Shown: positions 4,683 through 64,000 of the stretch, one piece after another
How positions within the stretch are numbered: the first letter of the stretch is position 1
Layout of the letters: the number at the start of each line of letters is the position of its first letter
From: Angelakisella sp.
GTDB taxonomy: Bacteria; Bacillota; Clostridia; Oscillospirales; Ruminococcaceae
Length of the DNA stretch: 64,000 bases
Reading direction: 5' to 3'
NCBI GenBank assembly: GCA_020024515.1
Contig: JAHHTR010000001.1
Span: forward strand, 1,635 to 65,634
Made by a program: the position numbers and the translations under genes
Notes under the pieces: generated by a model
The model's database searches: none
What the model was told of the DNA's origin: nothing
Seen by the model: only the letters and a program-made list of their open reading frames with translations

Positions 4683-4715
4683 AGTATAACTTTCCTTTCT
4701 TAATATGAATTATTT

Positions 4716-19181: not shown

Positions 19182-19201
19182 AACTTTTGTACTCCTCCTA
19201 T

Positions 19202-19801: not shown

Positions 19802-19805
19802 TCAG

Positions 19806-20483
19806 TTACACCCCTTTCCCGGCATTTGCACAAGCACCCTTTGATGGGCAGTTTGCACAGCCGAATTCTTTTTTCTTAATTGCTTTTGATTTTGTAAGTT
19901 TATTAACAAGTGCTATTAGTAAACCGAATACCAAGAAACCACCAGGAGCCATTTTCATAATTGATATTGGTGGTATACCTTCTGGTAATATGTTAAAGCC
20001 AAGTATTGTACCTGCGCCAAGCAGCTCACGAATAAATCCCATTACGCCAAGTGCAAGTGTAAAACCAAGACCCATACCGATACCGTCAAGTGCTGAATCA
20101 AGTACTGAATTTTTTGATGCGAACATTTCTGCACGACCAAGAATTATACAATTAACAACTATTAGTGGTATAAAGATACCAAGTGTATTGTATAAATCAG
20201 AAGCAAATGCTTTCATAAGCATTTCTATTACAGATACGAAACCTGCAATAACAACTATATAACAAGGTATACGAACCTTTGCAGGTATTACCTTTTTTAA
20301 TAATGATATTACTATATTTGAACCCAATAGTACAAATGTAGCCGCAATACCCATTGCCAAACCGTTTTTCATAGAAGTTGATGTAGCAAGAGTAGGGCAA
20401 GTACCAAGTACAAGTACGAGTACAGGATTCTCTTTTATTATACCATTAAGGAGTATTTTCATTTTTTGACTGAATTTACTCAC
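19806..20483 (-). CDS. rnfE: Rnf complex subunit E
   Basis: ...NPVLVLVLGTCPTLATS...LGIFIPLIVVNCIILGRAEMFASKN... is the RnfE signature. Carries an extra Cys-containing C-terminal tail. Confidence 0.9.
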   Translation of the reverse strand: MSKFSQKMKILLNGIIKENPVLVLVLGTCPTLATSTSMKNGLAMGIAATFVLLGSNIVISLLKKVIPAKVRIPCYIVVIAGFVSVIEMLMKAFASDLYNTLGIFIPLIVVNCIILGRAEMFASKNSVLDSALDGIGMGLGFTLALGVMGFIRELLGAGTILGFNILPEGIPPISIMKMAPGGFLVFGLLIALVNKLTKSKAIKKKEFGCANCPSKGACANAGKGV

Positions 20484-20511
20484 TTATCTTCACTCCCTCT
20501 TATAATAAATT

Positions 20512-21417: not shown

Positions 21418-22358
21418 TATTTAACTCCTCCAAATGGCATTTTTTTAGTTAATTTATTTATATGTGGTGTTACTATATTCATTAGTAGTATTGCAAATGA
21501 CATACCTTCCGGATATGAACCATAAGCACGAATTAGTACTGCTATTACACCCACACCTATACCAAAGATAATTTTACCGCTCTCACGAACAGGAGAAGTA
21601 ACATAGTCTGTTGCCATAAAGAATGCTGCAATCATTGTACCGCCTGATACCAACATATAAAATGGATTTAGTCCTGTTATTAATGACATAACGAATACTG
21701 TTACAAGTATTGTAACAGGAATTGTTGCTGTAATTACTTTCTTGTATATTAGATATATACCACCGATAAGAAGCGCAAGTGCTGCTGTTTCACCCAAACA
21801 ACCACCACGTACACCAAGTAACATATTAAGCATATTTGGTGTGTCCATAACTGAACCGCCTGTTGTAAGTATAGCAAGTGGTGTTGCACCTGTTACTGTC
21901 TCACAAGCTTTAACATAAGAGTTTGGATTTGCCCATGTTGTCATCTCTTTTGAAAAAGCTACCAGAAGGAATATACGAGCTGTTATCGCAGGATTGGCAA
22001 AGTTATCACCAATACCTCCAAATAGACATTTTACGAACAAAATCGCAAAAATACCGCCTACAACAGCCATCCATATAGGAAGTGTTGAAGGCAAGTTGTA
22101 TGCAAGAAGTAAACCTGTTACTACTGCGCTGAAATCTCCAACTGTTTGTCTTTGTTTCATTAATCTGCAAAATAGATACTCTGTCAAAACACAAGTTGCA
22201 ACAGTTACTGCTATCAGTATTAATGCCCTATAACCAAAAGTAAGCACCGACACAATTCCCGCTGGGATAAGTGCTGCTGACACATTCATCATTATTGATG
22301 ATGTTGAAACAGGAGACTTGATGTGTGGTGAGGGCGAAACTGTCAATTTACTAACCAT
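21417..22358 (-). CDS. rnfD: Rnf complex subunit D
   Basis: Polytopic membrane protein (MVSKLTVSPSPHIKSP...), NqrB/RnfD-like including ...ATDYVTSP... Position in the operon fits. Confidence 0.9.
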   Translation of the reverse strand: MVSKLTVSPSPHIKSPVSTSSIMMNVSAALIPAGIVSVLTFGYRALILIAVTVATCVLTEYLFCRLMKQRQTVGDFSAVVTGLLLAYNLPSTLPIWMAVVGGIFAILFVKCLFGGIGDNFANPAITARIFLLVAFSKEMTTWANPNSYVKACETVTGATPLAILTTGGSVMDTPNMLNMLLGVRGGCLGETAALALLIGGIYLIYKKVITATIPVTILVTVFVMSLITGLNPFYMLVSGGTMIAAFFMATDYVTSPVRESGKIIFGIGVGVIAVLIRAYGSYPEGMSFAILLMNIVTPHINKLTKKMPFGGVK

Positions 22359-22374
22359 AATTATAAACTACCCC

Positions 22375-23688
22375 CTATTTTTGTTGTTGCTGACGCAAAA
22401 GTTGCTTACCTAACTTATTGTACATTGCAAGAGGTCTTCTTGCCGGACATACATAAGAACAACAACCACATTCCATACACAAATTAACTTTTAAATCTTT
22501 AAGTGCTTCAATATTTTTTGTGTGATATGCACTGTCAAGCATTGCCGGTGACAAATCTATCGGACAAGCTCTCATACATCTTCCACAACGGATACATGCT
22601 GTTTCCTCAAATATCTCAGCATCTTTTGGTAAAAATGCAAGTATGGCATTTGTATTTTTAATTACTATATATTCATCACTTGGAAGTGCAATACCCATCA
22701 TTGGGCCACCCATAAGTATTTTCTTTGGTGTATCTACATATCCACCGCAAAATTCTACTAAATCAGATACTGATGTGCCAAGTGGAACAGTTATATTTTG
22801 TGGATTTTTTATAGCACTGCCGTCTACTGTAAGTGTTTTTTCTACAAGTGGCATACCTGTATTTACATAATCAGCAAGTGTTGCAAGTGTTGTAACATTA
22901 CAGATAATAACACCGCTATCAGCAGGTAACGCACCCTCTTTTATCACTCTGCCTGTACATTCAAAAGCAAGAACTTTTTCACCACCCTGTGGGTATTGTG
23001 ATTTCAAAGTTTTTACATTTATATTAGCCTCATCTTTTAATAGATTGGTTAATTTTTCAATAGCCTCAGGCTTATTATTTTCTATACCTATTACTGCTTC
23101 TTTAAGATTTAAATGTTTTACAACAAGTTTAATACCTTCAATCAATAACTCTGTGTTATCTATCATAAGTCTTGTATCACAAGTTATATACGGTTCACAT
23201 TCAGCACCATTTACAACAAGTGTATCCACAGTATCGATATTTTTAGGATTTAGCTTAATATGTGTTGGAAATCCCGCACCACCAAGACCAACAAGACCAC
23301 AGTTTTTTGCTGCCTCTATTAAATCCTTTTGATTTTTGATTTCAGGTTTAACTACTGTTTCACTAACTGCTTGCAAACCATCTGTTTCTATAACAACTGC
23401 TTTGCAAGTTGCACCCATTGGTGTAAGATAATCAATAATTGATTTTACAGTACCTGATACTGATGAATGTACATCAGCACACAAAAAACCTTGACCTTCG
23501 CCTATCTTTTGGCCTACTTTTACTTCATCGCCAACCTTAACAAGCACTTCGCTTTCGCTACCCATATGTTGAATCATGGGGAGTGTTACTTGTTTAGGAA
23601 TAGGCATTTTTACAGCTTTTTTATCCGCTGTATTTTTATGATGTTCAACATGAACACCGTTTAAACTGCGGTGAAAAAGTTTTCCCAC
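22375..23688 (-). CDS. rnfC: Rnf complex subunit C
   Basis: GTG start after GGAGG. GLVGLGGAGFPTH nucleotide-binding motif and two C-terminal 4Fe-4S motifs (CIRCGRCMRACP, CMECGCCSYVCP). Confidence 0.9.
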   Translation of the reverse strand: MGKLFHRSLNGVHVEHHKNTADKKAVKMPIPKQVTLPMIQHMGSESEVLVKVGDEVKVGQKIGEGQGFLCADVHSSVSGTVKSIIDYLTPMGATCKAVVIETDGLQAVSETVVKPEIKNQKDLIEAAKNCGLVGLGGAGFPTHIKLNPKNIDTVDTLVVNGAECEPYITCDTRLMIDNTELLIEGIKLVVKHLNLKEAVIGIENNKPEAIEKLTNLLKDEANINVKTLKSQYPQGGEKVLAFECTGRVIKEGALPADSGVIICNVTTLATLADYVNTGMPLVEKTLTVDGSAIKNPQNITVPLGTSVSDLVEFCGGYVDTPKKILMGGPMMGIALPSDEYIVIKNTNAILAFLPKDAEIFEETACIRCGRCMRACPIDLSPAMLDSAYHTKNIEALKDLKVNLCMECGCCSYVCPARRPLAMYNKLGKQLLRQQQQK

Positions 23689-49580: not shown

Positions 49581-50564
49581 TTACGAGCTTATAAAATCTG
49601 TATTTACAGTTATATTGAATTCAATATTTTCAGAGTTTTCCAATATTTCTTGATTTTTCCTTGAATGTCTTATAAATTTATACAATAAATTTTCCGTATA
49701 TTTTTCGTTTGTGTATTTCTCTGCTTTTTCTTTGAATTTATTTGCAACTTCAATTTTTATTTTTTTCAATTCACCTTTTTGTATGTTTTCGCGTATATAG
49801 GCAATCGGAGAAATAATAATATTTATTTTTACTGTATTGTCACTTTCTTTTAAAATTTCAGATGTGTACACAATATCTTTAATATCAATAATATTATTTT
49901 CTATATTAATTGTATATGGTTTAAATTTCAGTAATTCATTTGATATAAATTTAAAATCTTCTATATCAAGTACGGAAAAATCTTTATCACATACTCCGAT
50001 ATATTTACAATATATATTGTTATCGGTTGTTTTAATTATTGGTATTAATAAAGAATGTAAGTTATCTACGCAGTGCGATGATATTAAATATAACTCATTT
50101 CCTGTTCTAAAATTTATATTTTGTATATTTTTCAGTTTGCTTTGCAAAAAATCCATTGTTTTATCATTAATTGTATCAGTAAAAGAAAAAAACATATAGC
50201 TTTTCGGTGATATCGTCTTTATCTCTGCGAATTCTTTGCAAATGTTTTTTATAACATTTTTACTTGTTATGTTGTTTATTATAATATATTGCACAGATGA
50301 CAAAAGCACATTTTCATTTTCGGAAAATCTTATTTTCTCTATACATTCTTTTATCGTATCACCTTCTGTTGACATAATATTTCTCTGTATTTCTTTTTCA
50401 TTACTGTTTTTCTCTTTAATTACTATTTTTACTTCATATTTATTGTCATTTCGTGATACTTGTAAGATTTCGGCTGATTTAGTGTAATTTATAAAAACAT
50501 CACTGCAACCCACAAATAATAAAGACAATAGAAAAAAACAAATACAAATTATCTTTTTATACAT
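49581..50564 (-). CDS. Ger(x)C-family spore germination lipoprotein
   Basis: Lipoprotein signal (MYKKIICICFFLLSLLFVGC). 327 aa. Third gene after the GerA- and GerB-type genes, overlapping the GerB-type gene by 8 nt. Confidence 0.7.
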   Translation of the reverse strand: MYKKIICICFFLLSLLFVGCSDVFINYTKSAEILQVSRNDNKYEVKIVIKEKNSNEKEIQRNIMSTEGDTIKECIEKIRFSENENVLLSSVQYIIINNITSKNVIKNICKEFAEIKTISPKSYMFFSFTDTINDKTMDFLQSKLKNIQNINFRTGNELYLISSHCVDNLHSLLIPIIKTTDNNIYCKYIGVCDKDFSVLDIEDFKFISNELLKFKPYTINIENNIIDIKDIVYTSEILKESDNTVKINIIISPIAYIRENIQKGELKKIKIEVANKFKEKAEKYTNEKYTENLLYKFIRHSRKNQEILENSENIEFNITVNTDFISS

Positions 50565-51573
50565 CTTTATTACCTCTCTTTTTTAATATTTTCGTGGTTG
50601 TGATATAGATTAAAGGGAGTATTACAACACTCAAAATAAATACACACAAATGAACAGTTACAAGCATATTATAGCTAATGGTATTTAGTATAATGGCTGT
50701 TATAAAAGAAAACAACAAGAAAATAAACATCTTAACTGTTTTGTGTGAAATAGCAATCTTATTAAAATACTCAAAAGAAAAATTAAACATAAGAATACTT
50801 CTGATTGCACCGAGAGCTACCCAAATACAAAAAAACAGAGCCTGTACATTATCAATAAAAAATCCCCTTGTTATCTTTGCAAGTGCAAATGTCGGTATTT
50901 TGCTAAACTGTGCATACGAGCCAACACCTGCCACTATAAAAACAATGACAACAATACTTCCCAGAAAATTACTCAGCATAAGTAAAAAAATATCTTTCTT
51001 TTTTGCTGAAGGAAAAGTATATTTCATTAATTTTGCAAAGGTAATGATTTCAGCTGAAAACATCATATTTTCATATGTGGCAATGGCTGTCTCTCTAAAA
51101 GAAATATTAAATTCCAAAAGATTATAAAAATTAAGTTTCGGAAATACGGATATAATCAATACGCCAATAGCAAAAGCAATAAGACAAAACAGTATAAAAC
51201 CACCACGAATCAGTGCAGGTATACCCATTAATGAAACAAAAAAAGTTGCAAATAAAAAAATCGCCAAATAAAAATACAATAATTTTTTATCGTAGAATTC
51301 TATAACCGCAAATTTAGTGCATATCAAAGCGGAATATACACCAAATATCAAAAAATATAAAAACAGTATAGAATTACATATTTTTTCTGTAATATTACCC
51401 AAGGATTTTTCCTCAATATTCTCCCAAAACTTTACAAATAGAAGTATTAATGCAAATTTTATAATACTTGCAATCGCTGTTCCCATAATAACTGAACCTA
51501 TTTCTCTCGATGTTCCCGAACGAATTAACGACATAAAAAATCTCGAAGAAAATATCAGCAAAAATATATACAT
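50557..51573 (-). CDS. Spore germination receptor permease subunit (GerAB type)
   Basis: About 10 TM helices in a 338-aa ORF, placed between the GerAA-type and GerAC-type genes. The exact start is uncertain. Confidence 0.7.
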   Translation of the reverse strand: MYIFLLIFSSRFFMSLIRSGTSREIGSVIMGTAIASIIKFALILLFVKFWENIEEKSLGNITEKICNSILFLYFLIFGVYSALICTKFAVIEFYDKKLLYFYLAIFLFATFFVSLMGIPALIRGGFILFCLIAFAIGVLIISVFPKLNFYNLLEFNISFRETAIATYENMMFSAEIITFAKLMKYTFPSAKKKDIFLLMLSNFLGSIVVIVFIVAGVGSYAQFSKIPTFALAKITRGFFIDNVQALFFCIWVALGAIRSILMFNFSFEYFNKIAISHKTVKMFIFLLFSFITAIILNTISYNMLVTVHLCVFILSVVILPLIYITTTKILKKRGNKDV

Positions 51574-51645
51574 AGGTTTAAAATACGTTGTTGGTGATGT
51601 GTCAGTATTCTTAATAATATTTATAACTATTCATCTCCTGTTTTT

Positions 51646-53088
51646 TTAGTCTTTTGATATATTGTTGATTGTAAAATTATTGTTATTCAGTTTCTTAAAA
51701 CTTCTTCTGAATATCAAATCTTGCGAAAACTTTTTGCTGTATGGTGAAAATGGTGCAGTATATGGCACACCCATAAACTCTATTGAAGATATATTTATTA
51801 TCATTGCTATAACTCCGAGCGTAAGTCCCCAAAAGCCCGTTATCCCTGCAAAAAATATAAATATAAATCTAAGTATTGTTACAGGCTGATAAAGGTGTGT
51901 TACGGTAAATGAACAAATTGCGGTAACACCTGTAACAATAAGCATTGGAAGTCCAACAAGCCCAGCTGTTACCGCCGCATCACCTATAACAAGTCCACCT
52001 ACAACACTTATTGCGCTGCCGATAGGTTTTGGAAGCCTTAGTCCCGCTTCTCGCAAAAGCTCATACATTATAAGTATAAAAAAACTCTCCCACATAGGCG
52101 AAAGCGGTGTTTTCGCAACCGAAAACAGCATGTCATCAAATAAAACCGTCGGTATTAATTCGTGATGAAATGTCATAATTGCAACAAAAATTGACGGTAA
52201 AAGTATTGTGACACAAAAACTTATAATTTTGAGCGATCTTATAAACCAAGTATAAAAAGGACGATTGATATAATCATCAGGCGTTTGAAAATTATCAATA
52301 AACAAATACGGCAAAATAAGAGCGAAAGGTACGCCGTCTACTATTATACCCACCCTACCCTCACATAGTTTACTGCAAAGCGTATCAGGACGTTCTGTTT
52401 TACCGATTGGACTAAACAGCGAAACTTTATTTTTGCACAAAAAAGGCGATAAGTATGACGCACTGAAAACCGCTTTTAAATTTATATTTTGTAAATTCTC
52501 CTTTATTTCTTCTATCATTTTTGTTGTTACAAGGTCACTGCAATACAACATTTTTACGGAAGTATGACTTATACTGCCTATTGTCACTCCCTCAACTATC
52601 AAATTTTTTGATTTTAATTTTCGTCTTATAAGTGCAACAGAAGTCACTGCCGATTCATTGAAACTTTCTCGTGAACCATATAGAGTTTGCTCAATTTGCG
52701 GAGAATCTATACCACGTGTGCTAAATCCTTGAAAACCAAAAGCGAGACCTTTTTTAGAACCATCAATAAGCAATACTGCAAACCCACTCATTGAAAAATT
52801 ATATAATTGCTCCATAGTTTCAACTTCTTTTTTATCAGAAGCATTCATCATTTCATTTTTAAGTAAATCAAAAATATCATTACCCGTTTTTCCTCTATTT
52901 ATATCAGTAAGCGGTATCAGTAAAAGTTCTGTTACCTGTAAATTAGACACAAGCCCATCAAACATAACTATTGCACCATTTACACCATTCATTTTAAATT
53001 CTTGTATAACTAAATCTTGACTGTTTTTCAGTGTGTTTTTAATTTCTGATAAATTAATATTTAAAGAGGCATTAATATACATTTTCAT
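51646..53088 (-). CDS. Spore germination receptor subunit A (GerAA/GerKA type)
   Basis: 480 aa. Soluble N-domain plus a C-terminal TM bundle with GerA-family segments (...ERPDT...GRVGIIVDGVPFALILP..., ...FMGVPYTAPFSPY...). Confidence 0.85.
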   Translation of the reverse strand: MKMYINASLNINLSEIKNTLKNSQDLVIQEFKMNGVNGAIVMFDGLVSNLQVTELLLIPLTDINRGKTGNDIFDLLKNEMMNASDKKEVETMEQLYNFSMSGFAVLLIDGSKKGLAFGFQGFSTRGIDSPQIEQTLYGSRESFNESAVTSVALIRRKLKSKNLIVEGVTIGSISHTSVKMLYCSDLVTTKMIEEIKENLQNINLKAVFSASYLSPFLCKNKVSLFSPIGKTERPDTLCSKLCEGRVGIIVDGVPFALILPYLFIDNFQTPDDYINRPFYTWFIRSLKIISFCVTILLPSIFVAIMTFHHELIPTVLFDDMLFSVAKTPLSPMWESFFILIMYELLREAGLRLPKPIGSAISVVGGLVIGDAAVTAGLVGLPMLIVTGVTAICSFTVTHLYQPVTILRFIFIFFAGITGFWGLTLGVIAMIINISSIEFMGVPYTAPFSPYSKKFSQDLIFRRSFKKLNNNNFTINNISKD

Positions 53089-55071: not shown

Positions 55072-55125
55072 GTAACCTAACAAAAAAGCTCAACTCTAAT
55101 GGGTTGAGCTTTTTTGTTAGGTTAC
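55072..55125. terminator. Bidirectional terminator between the HD gene and larC
   Basis: 23-bp perfect inverted repeat GTAACCTAACAAAAAAGCTCAAC / GTTGAGCTTTTTTGTTAGGTTAC with an 8-nt loop. The right arm includes the larC stop codon. Confidence 0.7.
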
Positions 55126-56369
55126 TTTATTTCGCTGAGTACATCTGCAATAGATACATTATATATACTTGCAGCTTGCTTTACATCTTCATATTCAGCC
55201 TTTTCTTTATTGATACCATAACCATATCCACATTTTATGCGTATTGAACCGTATTTTGTCTCTGCTGTACGCATTTTATATGATAATATATTACGATTAC
55301 AAATTTTGAAACGTACACCCAGTGTAGTTGTATGTTTGAGTAAAAGTTTTGTCATACGCTCTTGATCTTCGAGTCGGCACAGGCAAGTAAGCATATATGC
55401 AGGACGGCTTTTTTTCATAACTATCGGTGTTGCAAATATATCAAGTGCCTTTTCTTCCATTAATTTATCAATCGCAAAGCCAATAGTCTCAGGTGTCATA
55501 TCGTCTAAGTTACAGCTTAATTCTACTATTTCATCATGTCCTTCACTCTCTGAACTCAAAAATACCCGTACACAATTTGCAACTTCAAAATCTTTGTTAC
55601 CCATTCCGTATCCGATTTTTTCAGTAGTCATAACAGGCATTGAGCCGAATTTCTGCACAAAATGTTTAAGAACAGCCGCACCTGTCGGTGTACAAAGTTC
55701 TCCCTTAATATTTCCACTATATGTAGGCACTCCCATTAAAATATGCGCTGTTGCAGGTGCAGGAACAGGCAAAACTCCATGTGCACAATGTACAAAACCA
55801 CTGCCGACATGTATAGGTGATGCAAGTATTGATGAAACATCAAGTTTATTGATAAGTAAACAGCAACCAACAACATCTGCCACAGCATCAAGTGAACCTA
55901 CTTCATGAAAATGTATTTGCTCGATTGACGTATTGTGTACAAACGACTCCGCCTCACCAATTAATTTATATACATCAATAGCATCTGCCTTGACTTTTTC
56001 AGGTAAATCCAACTTTTCTATTACATCACAAATATCATGATAACTATAATGATGATGACTGTGTTCATTATTATGTGTGTGATCGTGACTGTTGGTATGC
56101 TCGTGGTGATGGTGATGATGAGATTCTATATGTTCTAAATCCGCATCTTCACTATGTTCTTCTTGTTCATCAACTAAAACTGAAATGTGACTTCCATATA
56201 TACCGCATTTCTGCACAGCTTTACAAGAAAGCTTTATGTTGTCAAGTCCCAGACTATTCATCTTATTCAAAAAATCTTGTTTATCTGTTTCTGATAACAA
56301 ATCATACAGTGCAGACATAAGCATATCGCCTGCCGCACCCATATTACATTCTAGGTAAAGTGTTCTCAT
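55122..56369 (-). CDS. larC: LarC, nickel-pincer cofactor nickel-insertion protein (DUF111), single ORF with His-rich tract
   Basis: MRTLYLECNMGAAGDMLMSAL is the DUF111/LarC N-terminus. His-rich insert HIESHHHHHHEHTNSHDHTHNNEHSHHHYSYHD. Start at ATG 56369, 8 nt after AGGAG. Confidence 0.85.
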   Translation of the reverse strand: MRTLYLECNMGAAGDMLMSALYDLLSETDKQDFLNKMNSLGLDNIKLSCKAVQKCGIYGSHISVLVDEQEEHSEDADLEHIESHHHHHHEHTNSHDHTHNNEHSHHHYSYHDICDVIEKLDLPEKVKADAIDVYKLIGEAESFVHNTSIEQIHFHEVGSLDAVADVVGCCLLINKLDVSSILASPIHVGSGFVHCAHGVLPVPAPATAHILMGVPTYSGNIKGELCTPTGAAVLKHFVQKFGSMPVMTTEKIGYGMGNKDFEVANCVRVFLSSESEGHDEIVELSCNLDDMTPETIGFAIDKLMEEKALDIFATPIVMKKSRPAYMLTCLCRLEDQERMTKLLLKHTTTLGVRFKICNRNILSYKMRTAETKYGSIRIKCGYGYGINKEKAEYEDVKQAASIYNVSIADVLSEIK

Positions 56370-57129
56370 TTTTTTCACTCCTTTTTATATGATTAATCAT
56401 ACTTGCTTGGTAGGCTGCACCAAAACCATTATCAATGTTGACAACACTAACTCCGCTTGCACACGAATTTAACATTGACAGTAGTGCAGATACTCCTCCA
56501 AAATTTGCACCATAACCAATACTGGTGGGTACAGCAATTATGGGACAATCTGCCAACCCACCTATGACACTTGCAAGTGCTCCTTCCATTCCTGCTACTA
56601 CAATTATTACACGTGCCGACATTATAACATCCATTTTAGAAAGTAAGCGGTGTATTCCCGAAACACCGACATCGTATAATCTTTCTACACAATTTCCCAA
56701 AAATTCAGCAGTAATTACAGCTTCCTCAGCCACAGGTATATCACTTGTACCAGCAGTTGCTACTACAATAACTCCGTCTGTATCACATAAATTTTTTTCG
56801 CCTACAATTCCTATTTGCGATACCTTATCATAAATAAGTGGCACAAATTTTTCCACTTCTTGTGCCTTTTCGGGGGTCATTCGTGTAATTAATATACCTA
56901 AAACACCTTCTTTGAGCATTGCAGAAGTAATCCCTACTATTTGCTCTGCTGTTTTACCACTACCGTAAATAACCTCATGTGAACCTTGTCGTATTGCCCT
57001 ATGGTAATCTATCTTTGCATATCCTAAGTCTTCAAACGGACTTAGTTTCAAATTCAAAAGAGCTTGCTCTGGGGAGATGGCACCGTTTTTAACTTGTTTT
57101 AATAATGCAAGAATATTATCTCTTTCCAT
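56344..57129 (-). CDS. larB: LarB, nickel-pincer cofactor biosynthesis carboxylase/hydrolase (AIR-carboxylase-like)
   Basis: 261 aa, ...DYHRAIRQGSHEVIYGSGKT...IVVATAGTSDIPVAEEA...VVAGMEGALASVIGGL... PurE-like fold motifs and lar gene context. Confidence 0.85.
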   Translation of the reverse strand: MERDNILALLKQVKNGAISPEQALLNLKLSPFEDLGYAKIDYHRAIRQGSHEVIYGSGKTAEQIVGITSAMLKEGVLGILITRMTPEKAQEVEKFVPLIYDKVSQIGIVGEKNLCDTDGVIVVATAGTSDIPVAEEAVITAEFLGNCVERLYDVGVSGIHRLLSKMDVIMSARVIIVVAGMEGALASVIGGLADCPIIAVPTSIGYGANFGGVSALLSMLNSCASGVSVVNIDNGFGAAYQASMINHIKRSEKNENTLPRM

Positions 57130-57141
57130 TCTATGTCCACC

Positions 57142-57885
57142 TCATCTCGCTTTTAAATCAAGTAATATATCTTCAAAGTCAATTGACAAAATATCTATTA
57201 TTTTAACACGTTTTGTGAGCAACAATGGCATTTGTTCTGTCTTTAATTGTATTTTTGCGCTATTTCCAACTACACGAATACGAAAATCGGAAAAACCCAT
57301 TTTAAATAGACTTTTTTCACTTCGTTCCACTTTTTTCAATAATTCAAAAGTCAATTTTGTTCCTGTTGGAATACGGGTAGCAAGACACGAATATGAAGGT
57401 TTATTGTAGGTAAAAAGACCTGCTTCCTTAGAAAGTTTACGGATTTCTGCTTTTGTCAAGTTACATTCACGCAATGGAGAACGCACACCCAATTCTGAAA
57501 TTGCACGCATTCCGGGACGGTCATTTATGTCATCTGAGGCATTTGTACCATCAAAAATAACATCACAACCTGCCTCTTTTGCCTTTTCCAGTAATTTTGT
57601 AAATAAAGTCTTTTTACAATAATAGCACCTGTTAGAAGGGTTTTCCACAACATCATTATTTTGTAACACATCATATTCAACTATTTCAAGATGTATACCA
57701 ATTTCTTCAGCAAGTCTTTGTGCATCTTCAAGCTCAAATTGAGGTTGAAATGGCGTTTTAAAAAACCACGCATTTATATCACAATTCGCTTGCTTCGCCG
57801 CCCACAATAGATATGATGAATCCACACCCCCTGAAAAAGCAAGAGCAGGTCTTTTAAACTGTTTAAAAAATTCATTTAATTGCAA
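57142..57885 (-). CDS. larE: LarE, ATP-dependent sacrificial sulfur transferase (PP-loop)
   Basis: PP-loop AFSGGVDSSYL and a conserved Cys region (...NRCYYCK...). 247 aa. TTG start after AAGGAGG. Confidence 0.85.
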   Translation of the reverse strand: MQLNEFFKQFKRPALAFSGGVDSSYLLWAAKQANCDINAWFFKTPFQPQFELEDAQRLAEEIGIHLEIVEYDVLQNNDVVENPSNRCYYCKKTLFTKLLEKAKEAGCDVIFDGTNASDDINDRPGMRAISELGVRSPLRECNLTKAEIRKLSKEAGLFTYNKPSYSCLATRIPTGTKLTFELLKKVERSEKSLFKMGFSDFRIRVVGNSAKIQLKTEQMPLLLTKRVKIIDILSIDFEDILLDLKAR

Positions 57886-57956
57886 ATAATTGCCTCCTTT
57901 TAAGTAAAATATTTCTATAAATTTATCATTATTTTATGCTGTTTTTCATAAAAAGA

Positions 57957-57985
57957 AGTGTACAATATAACTATATTTTTGTCAA
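57957..57985 (-). promoter_or_regulatory. Candidate sigma-A promoter for larEBC (TTGACA-17 nt-TACACT)
   Basis: On the minus strand, TTGACA (57985-57980), a 17-nt spacer, then TACACT (57962-57957). Confidence 0.4.
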
Positions 57986-58067
57986 TAAAATTATCTTTAC
58001 TTTATATTCTAAAAAAAATCAAATATAACCTTAAAATTATAAAATTATATTTTTTTAATACTGTCTC

Positions 58068-58135
58068 CAAAAAAGAAATACTCCCCATAGCGTAGGCTTG
58101 AAAATAATATTTTTTCAAGTATCTTCCCTATGGGG
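58068..58135 (-). terminator. Intrinsic terminator after the LarA-homologue operon
   Basis: Nested hairpin: outer CCCCATAG/CTATGGGG and inner CTTGAAAA/TTTTCAAG. AGUAUUUCUUUUUUGG follows on the minus strand. Confidence 0.6.
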
Positions 58136-58171
58136 ATTATTTTGTTATGAAATTAATTTATTTTTTAATTA

Positions 58172-59623
58172 TTAAATCAAGTCATCTTTCATGCATAGGT
58201 GAACAGCTGTTGTTTTGAATGTTAGTGGTAGTGCAAGGATATTTGGATTTTCTCCAACATATTTCTTCTTAGCATCAGCTAGTGCCTTTTCAAAAGTAGC
58301 TCGTGTTTTTAGTCCCATACCACGAGCAATACCTGGCTCACGAGCTCCAACAATATATATAGCGGATGTATTCATCTCTGCTATATGTCCACAGCTCATC
58401 ATTGAGAAACCATGGAATGGGTGGAAAGCATTTGCATATCTATATTTACGTATATATTCCTCATTTGTTGCAAAATACTCGCCGTAACGGTTCATATCAG
58501 GCAAAACATTGTTGTAGTCATGTTGGAACATATCATATAGTTCTTTTAGATATGGCCATCTTTCTTCGTGGAAGTAGCCGTCACAAATACTTGAAACGAT
58601 GAATACACAGTGGTCGCTCATAATTCTCTTGTGACGAATTACTTGTGCTGAAAGTGCTTGCATCATTTGAATTGGGTTTGTACCCATACCGTTACCATAA
58701 TGGAAATTTGTTGGCATACCGAAAACGATAACATCGTATTTTTTATCTGCCCATTTTACATAAGTTCTCTTATCAGCAACTTTCCAACTGATTGGTTGCA
58801 TTTCTTTTGCATAACCGCTGAATATAGCGATTTGTCTTGATTGGCTATCCAGAACAGCATCACAGCAGAAGAATTTTTTACCCATTTTTTCTTCCATATG
58901 CATACCGTGTTCATCAAATTTTGTACGCATTGAACTCTTTGTTGATACAGGTACAAAGTCCGCTTTGTGCATAACTTTTGGTACATGGTGAGCAGCTATT
59001 GTTTTCCAGTGACTGATACCTGTTGCACAGTGTTTGTAACCTGCTGAATAACCACCGTAAGGGTTACCTTGTGTATGTCCGATAAGGATAGCGATATCAG
59101 CATCAAAAACATATTTGTTCATGATAACATGGTCGCCTGCTTCTGTAAAGCCTAGGTCTACCAGATGATCATAGTCTTCACTATCGTGACTTGTTATTTG
59201 GTTTGTAAAGTAAAACTCATTGAATAGTTTTTCACCCAAAATTGTTTGCATTTCAGCAACAGTTGCACGTGGGTGTAAGCCATTTGAAAATAACAGCAAG
59301 ATATCTTTCTTTTCTACACCGACACTGTAAAGTTCATCAAGACAAGCTGTTATTGATACTTTACGGTGACTTGTTTCATGGTTACCACCCTTTACTATAT
59401 CAGGAATAACAAAAACCACTTTGCTGCCTTTGTGTGCCATTTCAGTAAGAGTTTGCATACCTATTGGGTTTCTTATTGATTTTAGAGTTTCGTTATAAAG
59501 TGTATCCCAATCTTGTGGCAAACATTCAGGATCTTTTACTGTAACACCGGGTATAAATGAATCAGTGTTATCAGGAAGCTCTGCGCTCATTGTGCCTTGG
59601 CCGTATTCAAATTCAAATTTCAT
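58172..59623 (-). CDS. LarA-family (nickel-pincer-dependent) racemase/epimerase homologue; substrate unknown
   Basis: 483 aa. MKFEFEYGQGTMSAELPDNTD is a LarA-like N-terminus. ...NGLHPR..., then ...GYSAGYKH-x13-HH with the Lys-to-His spacing of the LarA cofactor-tethering Lys and Ni-ligand His. Adjacent to larEBC. Confidence 0.7.
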   Translation of the reverse strand: MKFEFEYGQGTMSAELPDNTDSFIPGVTVKDPECLPQDWDTLYNETLKSIRNPIGMQTLTEMAHKGSKVVFVIPDIVKGGNHETSHRKVSITACLDELYSVGVEKKDILLLFSNGLHPRATVAEMQTILGEKLFNEFYFTNQITSHDSEDYDHLVDLGFTEAGDHVIMNKYVFDADIAILIGHTQGNPYGGYSAGYKHCATGISHWKTIAAHHVPKVMHKADFVPVSTKSSMRTKFDEHGMHMEEKMGKKFFCCDAVLDSQSRQIAIFSGYAKEMQPISWKVADKRTYVKWADKKYDVIVFGMPTNFHYGNGMGTNPIQMMQALSAQVIRHKRIMSDHCVFIVSSICDGYFHEERWPYLKELYDMFQHDYNNVLPDMNRYGEYFATNEEYIRKYRYANAFHPFHGFSMMSCGHIAEMNTSAIYIVGAREPGIARGMGLKTRATFEKALADAKKKYVGENPNILALPLTFKTTAVHLCMKDDLI

Positions 59624-59664
59624 ATTTTTCTAATTTCCTTTCATTTTATATCAATTTATAATTG

Positions 59665-60504
59665 TTATTTACCCATATATGTTTTAATGATTTCAAGATA
59701 TTCATTTGGGTAAAATCCTATCTCCCCTTGAAAACGTGTAAGTGCTATAAGTCCGCCATCAATTTCAGGTATGCTTGCAAGCATTTCGGCATTATCTACC
59801 TTCAAACCGCCACCATATACAACATCTATATCACCTGTTTTTTCTTTTACAAATTTAGCAATCATTTGTATATAGTCTTTGCTTGCAGGAGTTTTTCCGG
59901 GTCCAATACTCCAAATAGGCTCATAAGCGATAACAACCTTAGATTTATCTACACCGTTTAGTCCAATTTCAAGTTGTTCACCCAAAACTTCTTGCCAACG
60001 CTCTTGTTCTTCGCTCTTTTCTCCAATACAGTATAGTACATGAAGACCAGCTTTTTGCGCTGCCAAAATTTCTTGATTTAGTATTCTGTTAACTGCTTTT
60101 GTATCTCTAACGCCAGCCTCTGCCAAAATACCCATTTTATCATTACGTTCTTCACAGTGACCGATTATTGTAGAAACACAACCCATTTCTTTTACAATGT
60201 TAGCTGTACGATTTGTTGTAAATGCACCAAAATTTCCGCCTACTGCTGTATCTGCTCTGTATACACTTTGGCTACCAAGTTTAACAGCACTGTCCTCACA
60301 ACAAACAGCACTTTTTGCACCAAGTAAATGTGCCTCAGGCATATACATAACAAAGTCTACTTCGTTTTTATCATATTCATTAAGTTTTGCTTGTGTATTT
60401 TCAACGATGTACTTTCCCCAATCTTTCAGTGGTGCTATCCTGTTAACGCCACCGTTTTCAGGGGAAATATCAAATCTTTTTAGATTAAGATAGATATGCT
60501 TCAT
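59665..60504 (-). CDS. Triosephosphate-isomerase-family protein (divergent paralogue)
   Basis: TIM catalytic landmarks are kept: NLK near the N-terminus, IGHCEE, and AYEPIWSIGPG. The phosphate-gripping motifs diverge. 279 aa. Confidence 0.7.
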   Translation of the reverse strand: MKHIYLNLKRFDISPENGGVNRIAPLKDWGKYIVENTQAKLNEYDKNEVDFVMYMPEAHLLGAKSAVCCEDSAVKLGSQSVYRADTAVGGNFGAFTTNRTANIVKEMGCVSTIIGHCEERNDKMGILAEAGVRDTKAVNRILNQEILAAQKAGLHVLYCIGEKSEEQERWQEVLGEQLEIGLNGVDKSKVVIAYEPIWSIGPGKTPASKDYIQMIAKFVKEKTGDIDVVYGGGLKVDNAEMLASIPEIDGGLIALTRFQGEIGFYPNEYLEIIKTYMGK

Positions 60505-60556
60505 TTATTTTACTCCCATATAATTTAAAATTTTATAATAAAAAGTGATATATAAA

Positions 60557-61714
60557 TTATATACCTTCTTTTTTATAACGCTCAGCCATTTCGTCAAGTG
60601 TAACTTTTTCTACAAGTGGAGCCTTACCAAAGCTGCCAAATTCAACAATAAGTGTACCAACAGCCTCTTTTACGCCTCGTTCAACGCAACTTACAATCTT
60701 TGCAACATCTTCATCAGGAATATTTCCATACATTACTGTATCCATTATTGGTGGTAGGAATGCACGTGGATCAAATGCTGACTTATTGCTCTCCAACAAG
60801 TCATATATTTTACCTATTGATGCGGATTTTTGCATAACCGGTTCTTGTTCGAATAATTCTTTCATATTACGTGTTACAGCAAGACGAATATCTGTATCAA
60901 CATTTATTTTACCTATACCGCAAGGAATAACTGCTTTTAGTTGTTCAAGTGCTATTCCATAAGTATTTGTAAGTTCACCGCCCAAAGCATTGATTTCATC
61001 TACAATATATTTTGGAACAGTTGAAGAACCATGGCTAACGAGTACACCGAAAATATTTTCATGCATTAGGCATTCTTTTATTGCAATAGCAATTTCTTTG
61101 CGAAGTTTAACATCTTTACCTTTGCTTGCACCATGCATTGTACCATAACTTATTGCCAAGCAGTCAACTTTTGTTTTCTTAAAAAATTCAACTGCGTCCA
61201 TTGGGTTTGTGTATGTAGATGTTGCACTGAATACATGGTCCTCAACACCTGCAAGTACACCAAGTTCACCCTCAACAGTTACACCACGAGCATGTGCATA
61301 TTTTACAACTTCACGTGTAAGTTCAATATTTTGGTTAAAAGGAAGTGATGAACCGTCTATCATAACAGATGTATATCCACCATCAATAGCTGCCTTTACA
61401 CTGTCCATATCTTTACCATGGTCGAGATGCAGTACAACAGGAATAGTTGCGTCTGTACCATATTTTTTAACTGCATCACCGATATTTTTTGCACCCTTTA
61501 TTTTGTCTTCAACAGTTGCATTCAAAAAGTCCGTTCTGCCACCCATAAAACCATTTGCAAGGTCAGCACCTTGTAGTATAGCAGGTGAACGAAACATCTC
61601 GTGAACTTCAATAGCCGCTTTTGCCTGCGCTACTGCATTTACATTAAACCCACCCTGTGCATATCCATATTTTTGTGTTGCCTCCAAAAGAGGTCTCATT
61701 GGTACTATTGCCAT
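60557..61714 (-). CDS. Class II ketose-bisphosphate aldolase family protein
   Basis: LHLDHG, EGELG and ISYGTMHG metal-ligand motifs of class II FBA/tagatose-bisphosphate aldolases. 385 aa. Confidence 0.8.
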   Translation of the reverse strand: MAIVPMRPLLEATQKYGYAQGGFNVNAVAQAKAAIEVHEMFRSPAILQGADLANGFMGGRTDFLNATVEDKIKGAKNIGDAVKKYGTDATIPVVLHLDHGKDMDSVKAAIDGGYTSVMIDGSSLPFNQNIELTREVVKYAHARGVTVEGELGVLAGVEDHVFSATSTYTNPMDAVEFFKKTKVDCLAISYGTMHGASKGKDVKLRKEIAIAIKECLMHENIFGVLVSHGSSTVPKYIVDEINALGGELTNTYGIALEQLKAVIPCGIGKINVDTDIRLAVTRNMKELFEQEPVMQKSASIGKIYDLLESNKSAFDPRAFLPPIMDTVMYGNIPDEDVAKIVSCVERGVKEAVGTLIVEFGSFGKAPLVEKVTLDEMAERYKKEGI

Positions 61715-61770
61715 AAGTCTACATCTCCTATAAATTTTATTTTTATATGAAAAATTTTTTAAACTAAATC

Positions 61771-62964
61771 TTACTTTTCTTCTTTAAATGTTACAAGTTT
61801 AGGCAGTGGTTTTCCTATAAGTGGTCTACACCATTCCTTAAATGCCTCTGTAACACCATTTCCTTCTTCATTTATAAATTCATCAGGCATTTTTCTTTCA
61901 AACATCATAACTTCTTTTGTATCAACAAGAAATACTTCACATTTATATGGTCCATTTGATATTCTCTTGAATGCAACCATTTTTCCGCTTTCGCCTTCGA
62001 TAACACTCTTTGCTGCTACTCTGCCTGCCTCTTGTGCCTCTTTACTGTCTATATCCGATAACCATGCAATAGATGCTCTGCCACATAGTCCCGGTTTTTC
62101 ACTTCTTGCCTTATAACCGAATTTCTTGATAATCAAGTTGCATAGATGTGCACTTACATCACCGAAATATGTTGCTCTGCCTACTTTGAAAATAGGTTCA
62201 ACAATAGGTTTACCGTCTGCATAGTGTAGTCCTTCGCTTGCAACAACAACTCCATAACCCTTTTCATCAATCAGCTTTTTAACATCTGAAAGAAATTTTT
62301 CTTCATCAAAATCTCTTTCAGGTAGATATATAAGGTCAGGTGCAAATCCACTATCTTCTGCAAGAGCTGATGCCGCTGTTATCCAACCCGCATTTCTGCC
62401 AAGTGCTTCTATTACACAAATATGTATAGGTAATCCCCTAACATCACAAGCAACCTCGGCAACTGTTCCGGCAATATATCTTGCCGCACTGCCAAAACCC
62501 GGTGCGTGGTCTGTTATCGCTATATCGTTATCAATAGTTTTAGGTATGCCCATTACACGAATACCTGTTCCTTCGCATGCCATAAACAGCTTGCCACAAG
62601 TATCCATTGTACCGTTACCGCCATTCATAAGTACCATATCTATATTAAATTCTTTTAGTACTTCTACCATTTCTTTATATTCTTTTTCTTCCAATGCGTC
62701 ACGAGATGTACCAATTGCAGATGCCGGACTTTGCAGTAACAGTTCCAACTGTTCATCTGTAAATGAACGTGCATCTTTCAAGTTCTTTGCAATAAGACCA
62801 CCTGTTCCACCAATAGCAACATAAACTTTTTCTATTTCTGTGTGGGATACAGCCTCTTTTATAGCTCCATACAACGAAGCATTTATTACAGGAGACGGTC
62901 CGCCACCGTGAATAATTACCAAATTACCCATAGTATCATACCTCACATCATTGAATTTATTCAT
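61771..62964 (-). CDS. Phosphofructokinase (PfkA) family kinase; phosphoryl donor and substrate uncertain
   Basis: HGGGPSPVINA, MNGGNGTMD, IPKTIDNDI and ALGRNAGW are PfkA-family motifs. 397 aa. Confidence 0.8.
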   Translation of the reverse strand: MNKFNDVRYDTMGNLVIIHGGGPSPVINASLYGAIKEAVSHTEIEKVYVAIGGTGGLIAKNLKDARSFTDEQLELLLQSPASAIGTSRDALEEKEYKEMVEVLKEFNIDMVLMNGGNGTMDTCGKLFMACEGTGIRVMGIPKTIDNDIAITDHAPGFGSAARYIAGTVAEVACDVRGLPIHICVIEALGRNAGWITAASALAEDSGFAPDLIYLPERDFDEEKFLSDVKKLIDEKGYGVVVASEGLHYADGKPIVEPIFKVGRATYFGDVSAHLCNLIIKKFGYKARSEKPGLCGRASIAWLSDIDSKEAQEAGRVAAKSVIEGESGKMVAFKRISNGPYKCEVFLVDTKEVMMFERKMPDEFINEEGNGVTEAFKEWCRPLIGKPLPKLVTFKEEK

Positions 62965-62998
62965 TATTAAAAATACATTTTATATTAAAAATCAAAAA

Positions 62999-64000
62999 TT
63001 AATATTTAAATATGGTTTTTTGCAGTGCTAAAGCACAACCACCCAGTGCACCTCTGTTAACATCAGATGGTAAAAATACAGTCTTTGTCTTTTCATCATT
63101 TATACACAATAAATTTTCATAAAAAACATCTGTAAACATCTTTTGATTTTTCTCTGTCGATAACAACATACTGTCAATTATTATATACGGTACTGAAATA
63201 TAATTGATGATATTCGATAACGAAATAGCAAGTATATCTATTGATTTTCTTACTATGCCATTTACTACTTTATCATTTTTTTTCTGAGCTTCCAAAACTT
63301 CTTCTATATTTATGTTATTAATATCTTTAGATATTGTTTTAAGCACTGTGTCCTCATTATTTTTTATTGCATCTTCACACTGTTTACAAATTGCGCTTTC
63401 GCTTGCTATGGCTTCAAGACACCCTTTTCTGCCACATTCACTGCACACAGGACCGTTTCTGTCAACTATTGTATGACCAATCTCACCTGTGGAATAGTGA
63501 TTTCCTTTGTATACCTTGCTACCCAAAATAAGCGGACACGCAATACCACGAGAAACCATAAAATATGCGTAATCGACAAGTGAACTGTCTCTTTTGAATA
63601 TTTTATAGGCAATCGCCCTTGCTCTTACATTGTTTTCCACAAAAACAGGGACATTGATTTCCTTTTGCAAATCTCTTGACAAAAATCTATTTGTCCATAC
63701 CGATGCTACCGCTTTTTTTACAAAACCGGTTTGACTATCAATATATCCCGGAACGGTAACACCAACACCCAGTATCAAATTTTTGTTTATCTCAGATTTA
63801 ACAATTATATTATCAATATAACTTTTAATCTCTTTGACAGCATCTTCATATATTGTAAAAACTGTATCGTACTTTTTGCTGTACAGTACCCTTCCAAATA
63901 TATCGGTTAAACAAACATATACACCATTTAACAGTATTTCGATACCTATACAATAATTTGATTGTGGATTTATATCCAAATATTTTGCTTTTCTGCCTAG
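62999..64000 (-). CDS. ROK-family protein (probably a transcriptional regulator), N-terminus beyond window end
   Basis: ROK Cys motif CSECGRKGCLEAIAS. The frame is open from 63979 to the window edge (LGRKAKY upstream of the track start). The sugar-kinase DxGxT ATP motif is replaced (IGIEILLNG), as in ROK repressors. Confidence 0.7.
   Translation of the reverse strand, partial: LGRKAKYLDINPQSNYCIGIEILLNGVYVCLTDIFGRVLYSKKYDTVFTIYEDAVKEIKSYIDNIIVKSEINKNLILGVGVTVPGYIDSQTGFVKKAVASVWTNRFLSRDLQKEINVPVFVENNVRARAIAYKIFKRDSSLVDYAYFMVSRGIACPLILGSKVYKGNHYSTGEIGHTIVDRNGPVCSECGRKGCLEAIASESAICKQCEDAIKNNEDTVLKTISKDINNINIEEVLEAQKKNDKVVNGIVRKSIDILAISLSNIINYISVPYIIIDSMLLSTEKNQKMFTDVFYENLLCINDEKTKTVFLPSDVNRGALGGCALALQKTIFKY

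Follow-up and report, generated by a model that had tools for sequence, protein, structure and literature searches.

A single-histidine LarA homologue and its isomerase-like partner in a dedicated sugar cassette, with a possible role in the breakdown of sulfated hexosamines

What does a nickel-pincer enzyme of the LarA family do when it is encoded beside a sugar kinase, an aldolase and an isomerase? The question is raised by a 64,000-nt stretch of DNA from an Angelakisella sp. (GenBank assembly GCA_020024515.1, contig JAHHTR010000001.1, positions 1,635 to 65,634; this whole stretch is called the window below). Near its end, a LarA homologue (LarAH) stands last in a close-set series of genes that starts with a protein of the ROK family, and directly downstream lie the genes for its nickel-pincer nucleotide (NPN) cofactor. 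All eight genes are on the minus strand, and are given here in the order in which they would be transcribed:

62999..63979 (-), ROK-family transcriptional regulator, NagC/Mlc-like; the feature runs over 62999..64000, with its 5′ end beyond the window (PF00480, E=1.6e-40)
61771..62964 (-), phosphofructokinase (PFK) family 1-kinase (PF00365, E=1e-51; 398 bits against a cutoff of 273 for PRK14072, the pyrophosphate-dependent [PPi-PFK] subfamily)
60557..61714 (-), class II ketose-bisphosphate aldolase paralogue (PF01116, E=3e-71)
59665..60504 (-), divergent isomerase of the triosephosphate isomerase (TIM) family (PF00121, E=2e-37)
58172..59623 (-), LarAH, 483 aa (Lar_N PF09861, E=1.3e-34, its sole domain match)
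57142..57885 (-), larE, sulfur transferase of NPN synthesis (TIGR00268, 250.6 bits against a cutoff of 150)
56344..57129 (-), larB, nicotinic acid adenine dinucleotide carboxylase/hydrolase of NPN synthesis (NF033503, 281.9 bits against a cutoff of 175)
55122..56378 (-), larC, CTP-dependent nickel insertase (PF01969, E=1e-138; TIGR00299 and NF052512 above cutoff)

The gaps from ROK to LarAH are 34, 56, 52 and 41 nt, in agreement with a preliminary description of this DNA, which had five co-oriented genes about 34-56 nt apart and proposed that LarAH feeds a dedicated carbohydrate branch. Our analysis suggests that the neighbours of LarAH and its orthologues point to a sulfated or sulfonated sugar, which that description did not consider.

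Judged by its alignment, LarAH is an orthologue of LarA_Bw from Blautia wexlerae and LarA_Sp from Streptococcus plurextorum, and a nickel-pincer-nucleotide enzyme. It matches the structures of the former (PDB 9Q3J, 842 bits) and the latter (9Q2U/9Q3K, 788 bits) nearly end to end, and is about 80% identical to both over its full length. Gatreddi et al. (Protein Sci 2025, PMC12611868) described a "single catalytic histidine" subfamily of LarA, in which Asn takes the place of His174 of LarA_Lp, the lactate racemase of L. plantarum. The residues named in that paper correspond one-to-one to residues that are invariant in 10/10 aligned orthologues: D75, K78, H117, N187, K197, H213, H308, Y309, H404 and R434, in window numbering. 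D75 is the ribose Asp, K78 replaces Arg75, H117 is the catalytic His and N187 stands in for the second one. K197 and H213 align with Lys195 of LarA_Sp, which forms the thioamide link to NPN, and with its Ni ligand His211, both of which are shown by the LarA_Sp density. H308, Y309 and H404 are the substrate-side His306, Tyr307 and His401 of the published set, and R434 is the dimer-interface Arg. The window protein has the Asn at the His174 position, the His/Tyr/His set and the dimer Arg that mark the subfamily, and, like LarA_Bw and LarA_Sp, has glycolysis-like neighbours. It differs from these two in lacking a Cys/His-rich C-terminal tail of about 14 residues. Such a tail (about 13-15 residues) is found in most orthologues, which are 495-498 aa long with the consensus end HxCG; the window protein ends in ...MKDDLI, and a few database orthologues are equally short. 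The published account itself names the Ni ligand of LarA_Sp as His211 in its section 2.4 and as His221 (LarA_Bw His223) in section 2.5. Our alignment favours His211, equivalent to window H213, which follows the NPN-linked Lys at a distance of 16 residues, the same as in LarA_Lp.

With LarA_Lp, the window protein shares the Lar_N fold, the Lys-bound NPN, the His ligand of nickel, one catalytic His and the dependence on LarB, LarC and LarE. It differs in Lys for Arg75 and in most substrate-side residues; of the two catalytic histidines of LarA_Lp (His108 and His174), the first has its counterpart in H117, but position 187 is Asn. Identity as a lactate racemase is ruled out by this Asn together with a score of 104.4 bits against a cutoff of 460 for the lactate racemase model NF033504. 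Every LarA-type NCBIfam model was missed, the best (LarAH14/15/16) at 158 bits against 740. LarA_Sp showed no lactate racemase activity (PMC12611868). Both that paper and one in Nat Chem of June 2026 call the function of the single-histidine subfamily unknown; the first notes neighbours "potentially involved in glycolysis" and speculates about carbohydrate processing, and the second suggests that single-histidine LarAHs might carry out intermolecular hydride transfer.

The most ordinary reading of the locus would be plain glycolysis with lactate racemisation, the PFK, aldolase and TIM being the sole glycolytic copies of the genome. Family-level Pfam names are what favours it, and, with the window and 10 kb upstream of it as the part of the source genome covered, we find it scarcely credible. 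Beyond the properties of LarAH just given, the aldolase falls under every fructose-bisphosphate aldolase (FBA) equivalog cutoff in NCBIfam (238 vs 511 and 236 vs 343 bits) and scores 216.2 against 215.6 for TIGR00167. The TIM-like protein misses all triosephosphate isomerase equivalog cutoffs (best 94 bits vs 255), and its best TIM match in the PDB reaches just 84 bits. The PFK passes only the subfamily model PRK14072. In the PDB it comes nearest to the PPi-PFKs 3K2Q and 3HNO, and it carries the motifs GGNGT and PKTIDND; a Lys at the position of E. coli G124 is of the PPi type, but a Gly at the 104 position is of the ATP type, and this mixture leaves the phosphoryl donor ambiguous. No gap-pgk-tpi cluster occurs among the annotated open reading frames (ORFs) of the window, 20 besides the cassette and lar genes, which are not every ORF present. 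Nor do the 28 annotated ORFs, again not an exhaustive list, include a lactate dehydrogenase, a lactate permease or LarR, as the preliminary description had also reported.

How widely, and in what company, is this gene set found? Relatives of LarAH are encoded in 517 GTDB species genomes, and more than 2,400 protein clusters match it. Identity is 78-86% for each of the top 120; those few that are named by source come from Clostridia, Lachnospiraceae, Erysipelotrichaceae, Spirochaetales and Sphaerochaeta; a copy in a metagenome-assembled genome (MAG) of an Angelakisella sp. is 99% identical. We called genes within 10 kb on either side of LarAH in loci from 80 species genomes, clustered the products, and used Pfam and NCBIfam to identify those clusters that recur. 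The caller uses log-odds of amino-acid composition, recovers LarAH in 82/82 loci and agrees with official calls where compared; calling by longest ORF was dropped because antisense ORFs displaced real genes in GC-rich loci. Presence of each feature is counted over 54 well-flanked loci, and adjacency of the TIM-like gene over 73 loci with room for it. This survey is what is new here; PMC12611868 had already described the subfamily with its structures and noted the glycolysis-like neighbours.

In 60 of the 73 loci, the gene immediately before LarAH, in the same orientation, is TIM-like; among the 54 well-flanked loci, 47 have a TIM-like gene. Some carbon-carbon cleaving enzyme is likewise present in 47 (a class II aldolase in 38, a transaldolase or fructose-6-phosphate aldolase in 6, a split transketolase in 3). 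NagA or a NagB-like protein occurs in 40, at least one sulfur-type gene in 39, the exporter TauE in 24 and PFK in 23; over all 80 loci, PFK is found in 29 and the aldolase in 48. TauE follows immediately after LarAH in 21 loci. The invariant core of the cassette is the pair of TIM-like gene and LarAH, and the cleavage module before it varies: aldolase with or without PFK, transaldolase, or split transketolase. Identity to the window proteins is 82-87% for LarAH, 57-79% for the TIM-like protein, a median of 74% for the aldolase, a median of 44% for PFK and 28-34% for ROK. The preliminary description had made its proposal depend on LarAH standing apart from bona fide lactate racemases and on a conserved linkage with isomerase, aldolase and kinase genes, and both hold.

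Two loci with official gene calls and Pfam names illustrate the arrangement. One reads aldolase, TIM-like, LarAH, PFK, TauE, mutarotase, ABC permease, ABC ATPase, NMT1/SsuA-like binding protein, DUF4838, NagB-like, NagA. The other (L090) reads ABC transporter, histidine kinase, response regulator, NagB-like, NagA, aldolase, TIM-like, LarAH, PFK, TauE, with a Nik/Opp-type ABC transporter, larC and larB nearby. Copies of the cassette from Clostridia, Spirochaetota and a Desulfovibrionaceae MAG share 57-87% identity, and some (seen at L088 1-3250 and L084 16890-18191) adjoin conjugative-transfer genes (MobL and a TraG/T4SS coupling protein) or phage-type integrases. This conservation across phyla, together with such neighbours, indicates a mobile accessory cassette; it is typical of an accessory island and adds to the case against plain glycolysis. 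We are confident that the genes form a dedicated, non-glycolytic cassette.

What, then, is the substrate? Several companion genes point to sulfur. The recurrent importer resembles ABC transporters for taurine, aliphatic sulfonates and nitrate, with a TauB/SaoA-like ATPase, a TauC/SaoP-like permease and a binding protein of the SsuA family, and the recurrent exporter is TauE/SafE (PF01925). Some loci also hold halves of a chromate transporter (CHR) and a radical-SAM/SPASM enzyme of the sulfatase-maturase (anSME) type. A further neighbour belongs to DUF4838 (PF16126), a family that includes glycoside hydrolase family GH185, whose founder Sp_0475 is a cytoplasmic exo-6-sulfo-beta-N-acetylglucosaminidase; 6-sulfo-N-acetylglucosamine (6-sulfo-GlcNAc) is released from host glycans by sulfoglycosidases (PMC10570127). 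The cassette protein has invariant Q150, H203, D285, Y408 and R605. Compared by residue spacing, the first three lie exactly as Q174, H227 and D309 do in Sp_0475, and the last two sit at a common 4-residue shift relative to its Y436 and sulfate-binding R633.

The amino-sugar enzymes are also consistent with an unusual substrate. NagA scores 304 bits against an equivalog cutoff of 226. The NagB-like protein reaches only 88 against 237; it keeps the catalytic motifs DEY and GxNGH..NE, but its TGGTP phosphate loop is replaced and the equivalent of Lys208 is lost. The cassette of the related loci resembles the NagA/NagB route for GlcNAc-6-phosphate in having a NagA equivalog and a deaminase of NagB fold with its catalytic motifs, upstream of PFK and aldolase. 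It differs in the missing phosphate loop, the taurine/sulfonate-type importer, the co-encoded GH185-like protein and the lack of a GlcNAc kinase or phosphotransferase system (PTS). No sugar or hexosamine 6-kinase and no PTS is conserved among the surveyed loci, so the NagA/NagB pair would be left without a 6-phosphate substrate. A sugar that is already anionic at C6 would explain this.

The TIM-like partner shows the same pattern of kept catalysis and altered anion grip. It keeps the Lys, His and Glu catalytic motifs by which an enediolate is made, and GHCEER and YEPxWSIGPG are retained in the family (YEPIWSIGPG in the window). It differs from triosephosphate isomerase in a changed loop 6 (GPG) and in loop 8, where the phosphate grip GGASL is replaced family-wide by ALTRF, with the Arg in 61 of 69 members; it would act on sulfo-trioses. 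The PFK-like proteins of the cassettes fall into two motif classes, GGNDSMDT (15) and GGNGTMDT (7, the window protein included). Since every enzyme is a paralogue of one that handles phosphate esters, an isosteric O-sulfate would be the simplest substrate. The interchangeable cleavage modules (kinase with aldolase, transaldolase, transketolase) parallel the Embden-Meyerhof-Parnas, transaldolase and transketolase versions of sulfoglycolysis (sulfo-EMP, sulfo-TAL and sulfo-TK). From these companions, we think it probable that the substrate bears sulfur.

The next question is where in the pathway LarAH acts. Three alternative feeder enzymes are found directly upstream of it: the TIM-like protein, a dehydrogenase trio and a beta-hydroxyacid dehydrogenase. 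One locus (L084 6921-13961) holds an NMT1-type ABC transporter, a DAO+BFD / Pyr_redox / DUF1667 trio, LarAH, two TauE genes and a LarC fragment. Another (L086 7045-17641) holds an alkaline-phosphatase-family "Phosphodiest" protein, the beta-hydroxyacid dehydrogenase, LarAH, an ABC transporter and two TauE genes. Neither of these C3-type loci contains a hexose enzyme. We take the trio to be a clostridial GlpA/B/C-like glycerol-3-phosphate dehydrogenase; by analogy, it would turn an analogue of glycerol 3-phosphate into an analogue of dihydroxyacetone phosphate (DHAP). The beta-hydroxyacid dehydrogenase occurs in 3 loci and belongs to a family that includes sulfolactaldehyde reductase; among the recurrent neighbours, it alone resembles YihU. 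Taken together, the feeder enzymes and the hexose-free loci suggest that LarAH works on a triose, namely a sulfo analogue of either DHAP or glyceraldehyde 3-phosphate, a placement towards which we lean slightly. Because the C3-type loci contain no other enzyme able to free carbon from sulfur, they also point to LarAH as the sulfur-releasing step.

These observations bear on the idea that LarAH is an epimerase at the top of the pathway, acting, for example, at C2, C3 or C4 of a sugar, a sugar acid or an ordinary sugar phosphate, with its product passing into dedicated PFK, aldolase and TIM isozymes and all intermediates being phosphate esters. All characterised LarA homologues are racemases or epimerases, gluconate 2-epimerases included. 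The published speculation about carbohydrate processing goes with a phosphorylated aldose modelled into the ligand density of a single-histidine LarA structure; LarA_Sp as purified carries a 316.5-Da ligand, its density extends to the active-site entrance (PMC12611868), and such a ligand would fit a hexose-size pocket. PFK and NagA, moreover, score above ordinary family cutoffs. However, a single His rules out an epimerase mechanism that uses two bases. The genes to which LarAH is linked are the TIM-like gene and TauE, not those of transporters or kinases; a transaldolase or transketolase can stand in for kinase and aldolase, the C3-type loci have no hexose enzyme at all, and neither a C6 kinase nor a PTS is conserved. 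An epimerase would also leave the sulfonate-type ABC transporter, TauE, CHR and GH185-like genes unexplained. We therefore regard a pathway-top epimerase as unlikely. The preliminary description had proposed this arrangement, and was right that LarAH is something other than a lactate racemase; the upstream position is probably wrong, since LarAH appears to stand at the bottom with the TIM-like enzyme, often followed by TauE. Its outline of an NPN-dependent carbohydrate pathway survives as a dedicated branch with conserved linkage, but not as a novelty, given that the subfamily and its glycolysis-like neighbours are already in PMC12611868.

If LarAH acts instead at the triose level on a sulfur-bearing substrate, one can picture the following route. 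A taurine/sulfonate-type ABC transporter would import a hexosamine that carries a sulfur oxyanion instead of phosphate at C6. The likeliest candidate is 6-O-sulfo-GlcNAc, which would come from mucin- or keratan-type glycans through the cytoplasmic GH185-like 6-sulfo-GlcNAcase. NagA would remove the acetyl group, and the NagB-like enzyme would deaminate and isomerise the product to fructose-6-sulfate. The PFK-like kinase, for which we propose the activity of a ketose-6-sulfate 1-kinase in the window as well, would phosphorylate C1, and the class II aldolase would split the product into DHAP and glyceraldehyde-3-sulfate; in other genomes, transaldolase or split transketolase would perform the cleavage. 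The TIM-like enzyme would then interconvert the aldehyde and ketone forms of the sulfo-triose. LarAH, with its hydride-shuttling cofactor, would carry out a redox-neutral conversion in which the sulfur anion is freed and a C3 product at the level of methylglyoxal or lactate is formed, and the TauE (or CHR) exporter would expel the anion. The cofactor itself would be made by the products of larE, larB and larC next door.

We imagine that the cofactor takes a hydride from a C-OH group and returns it elsewhere in the same molecule, for which one acid/base His would suffice. Two variants can be envisioned. An enediolate with a good leaving group at C3 eliminates it, as when DHAP yields methylglyoxal and phosphate. 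In the first variant, the enediolate made by the TIM-like enzyme would eliminate its C3 leaving group in the manner of methylglyoxal synthase chemistry, and LarAH would turn the hydrate of the 2-oxoaldehyde into lactate via the pyruvate-plus-hydride state common to LarA enzymes. In the second, LarAH would oxidise the C1-OH of the keto form, and delivery of the hydride would expel the sulfur anion. There is a partial likeness to NphT, an NPN-dependent hydride transferase of aldo-keto-reductase fold (Nat Chem 2026), whose authors made the suggestion of hydride transfer by single-histidine LarAHs mentioned above. NphT resembles this proposal in being non-racemase NPN sugar chemistry and differs from LarAH in having an unrelated fold and no common gene context.

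Taken as a whole, a glycolysis-like route for 6-sulfo hexosamines that includes sulfur release by LarAH is our preferred but tentative model, to which we give something short of an even chance. Put in general terms, that single-histidine LarAs may be nickel-pincer desulfating or desulfonating enzymes on sulfo-trioses, which would end a hitherto unrecognised "sulfate-ester glycolysis" by which gut Clostridia and spirochaetes break down mucin-derived 6-sulfo-GlcNAc without sulfatases, is a possible but doubtful proposition. In the literature searched, we found nothing that connects nickel-pincer enzymes with sulfo compounds and no sulfatase-free catabolism of 6-sulfo-GlcNAc; to that extent, the hypothesis of sulfatase-free 6-sulfo hexosamine breakdown is unpublished.

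A number of points weigh against the sulfur interpretation. It reaches the window locus only via orthology: no homologue of TauE, NagA, an SsuA-like protein, DUF4838, phosphoglucose isomerase (PGI) or transaldolase was found in the window, where generic ABC ATPases alone matched, and the 10 kb upstream of the window also lack TauE, an SsuA-like binding protein, NagA and DUF4838. NagA lies above the ordinary cutoff for GlcNAc-6-phosphate deacetylase and PFK above that of the PPi-PFK subfamily, and either could simply be a phosphate enzyme of the ordinary kind. The binding protein of the ABC transporter falls under the SsuA cutoff (115 vs 164 bits), and proteins of the TauE family cover a broad range of functions. 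In many loci of the Flavonifractor type, PFK is missing from the 10 kb around LarAH, and most survey counts come from the simple composition caller, which was compared with official calls in few loci. The 316.5-Da ligand of LarA_Sp, with density reaching the entrance, suggests a pocket larger than a triose. Sulfite strongly inhibits LarA_Lp and forms an adduct at C4 of the cofactor, which favours sulfate over sulfite as the product unless the mechanism has some unusual feature. For the C3-type loci, a C3 sulfate ester would be required, and we know of no such ester that is an abundant metabolite. The sulfonate 2,3-dihydroxypropane-1-sulfonate (DHPS), by comparison, is abundant in gut and rumen.

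That last point leads to a variant in which the sulfur stays on carbon. In a pathway of the sulfoquinovose or DHPS type, the TIM-like enzyme and LarAH would convert reactive sulfolactaldehyde without NAD(H) and without desulfonation, and TauE would export the product; the chemistry could be an isomerisation or a Cannizzaro-type intermolecular hydride shuttle giving DHPS and sulfolactate. TauE exporters and taurine/sulfonate-type ABC transporters are classic genes of sulfonate metabolism, a YihU-like beta-hydroxyacid dehydrogenase adjoins LarAH in some loci, and the hydride transfer suggested for single-histidine LarAHs in the 2026 paper was an intermolecular one. The occurrence of DHPS would fit, as would the mirroring of the three known sulfoglycolytic schemes by the alternative cleavage modules. 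However, no homologue of a GH31 sulfoquinovosidase, YihS, YihV or YihT was found among the recurrent neighbours, and the presence of NagA, a NagB-like protein and a GH185-like 6-sulfo-GlcNAcase speaks for a sugar with an N-acetyl group and an O-sulfate. Loci confined to C3 compounds that import, transform and re-export a sulfonate would, in addition, gain no carbon. We consider this variant rather improbable.

The O-sulfate model follows the logic of sulfoquinovose sulfoglycolysis: isomerisation gives a ketose, three modes of cleavage exist, the cell retains DHAP or an equivalent and deals with the sulfo fragment separately, and exporters of the TauE type are present. This logic is found in the related loci; the window itself shows just the kinase, aldolase and isomerase part and has no TauE. 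The enzyme families differ, with YihS, YihV, YihT and YihU in sulfoglycolysis and paralogues of NagA, NagB, PfkA, class II FBA and TIM in the cassette. Sulfoglycolysis also uses an NAD(H)-dependent reductase or dehydrogenase on the sulfo-triose, where the cassette has the TIM-like and NPN enzyme pair, and the sulfur group in the cassette is probably an O-sulfate.

At the least, the neighbourhoods narrow the candidate substrates of single-histidine LarAs to glyceraldehyde-3-sulfate, dihydroxyacetone sulfate or their sulfonate analogues, handled together with the TIM-like partner. If the proposal is true, the LarA fold would have its first non-racemase reaction, and nickel-pincer chemistry would no longer be confined to racemisation. 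It would add a new branch to the organosulfur cycle and explain the fate of free 6-sulfo-GlcNAc in the gut. Gut bacteria would be able to use sulfated mucin sugars without sulfatases, which would matter for erosion of the mucus barrier and for how sulfide producers are supplied with sulfite or sulfate. If the sulfur reading is wrong, there is still a clean, nickel-dependent, horizontally mobile sugar cassette, with a pair of TIM-like enzyme and LarAH that has to be explained.

In the window, the genes for the cofactor are directly downstream of LarAH, and their three products each score above an NCBIfam equivalog cutoff. A gap of 286 nt separates LarAH from larE, and two signals lie in it:

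58077..58141 (-), terminator-like compound hairpin, 58069..58141 with its U-run (dG -26.4 kcal/mol)
57957..57985 (-), promoter-like site upstream of larE, TTGACA-17-TACACT (10/12 matches, a consensus match only)

The hairpin has a z-score of -4.14, and 0/200 shuffles fold as well; downstream of it, the sequence reads UAUUUCUUUUUU, the U-run. A simple terminator scan reported no minus-strand terminator in the gap, as the compound hairpin exceeds its loop limit. The TTG start of larE is preceded by AAGGAGG, a strong ribosome-binding site. The order of terminator, new promoter and larE-larB-larC given in the preliminary description is thus borne out, within the limits of a consensus match for the promoter. 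LarE has the SGGVDS motif and a CXXC-C motif (CYYC...SC), which is characteristic of the catalytic LarE from Thermotoga maritima, an enzyme of the [4Fe-4S] type (PMC9283937); the NCBIfam model that it matches has "sacrificial" in its name, though the motif is of the [4Fe-4S] type. The larC product is a fusion of LarC1 and LarC2 with a His-rich stretch.

Elsewhere, this proximity is rare. The lar cofactor genes were called next to LarAH in just 2 of the 80 genome loci, both from the source species; on some metagenome contigs, larC-larB or a LarC-like (Ni_insertion) gene is no more than a few kb away from LarAH. We also considered TauE as a transporter of nickel or cofactor and found no support for this, as lar genes are mostly not adjacent to the cassette and TauE often is.

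At the other end of the operon, the ROK protein reads as a NagC/Mlc-like regulator by its sequence. NagC and Mlc are its best NCBIfam matches, and its ATP motif is GIEILLNG in place of DxGGT, a degeneration that argues for a regulator, in keeping with the earlier account. On a Logan contig with identical genes, the full-length protein has 404 aa and an N-terminal HTH_24 match, marked weak. Just past the window end in the source species, divergent from ROK, is a gene for a 271-aa protein (L083 7789-8604, -) that has no Pfam match and clusters with the NagB-like family of the other loci. Further upstream are genes for a FecCD-type ABC transporter and for SSF and SNF symporters.

The other annotated genes of the window are housekeeping or unrelated by Pfam (Rnf, LeuRS, SMC, FtsY, PlsX, TopA, DprA, flagellin and an Opp/Nik-type ABC transporter). 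The last, an Opp/Dpp/Nik-type system at 1093-9171 (-), has an SBP_bac_5 protein at 3054-4682 and an AraC-type regulator at 8200-9171. The four ORFs that come after SBP_bac_5, up to 8046, have the sizes expected of two permeases and two ATPases, and two of them matched ABC ATPases; the stretch has 41-45% GC against about 33%. By analogy with the similar SBP_bac_5 ABC system beside larC-larB in L090, it may be a nickel importer. Directly after the flagellin gene (12272-13135) lies an ORF of 679 aa without a Pfam match (13264-15303, +). Genes of an Rnf ferredoxin:NAD oxidoreductase, with RnfC-, RnfD-, FMN_bind (RnfG)- and RnfB-like products, occupy 18363-23688 (-), and an operon of the GerA spore germination family, judged from translations, seems to be present at 49581-53088. 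With genes of these two types, the organism would be a spore-forming anaerobe.

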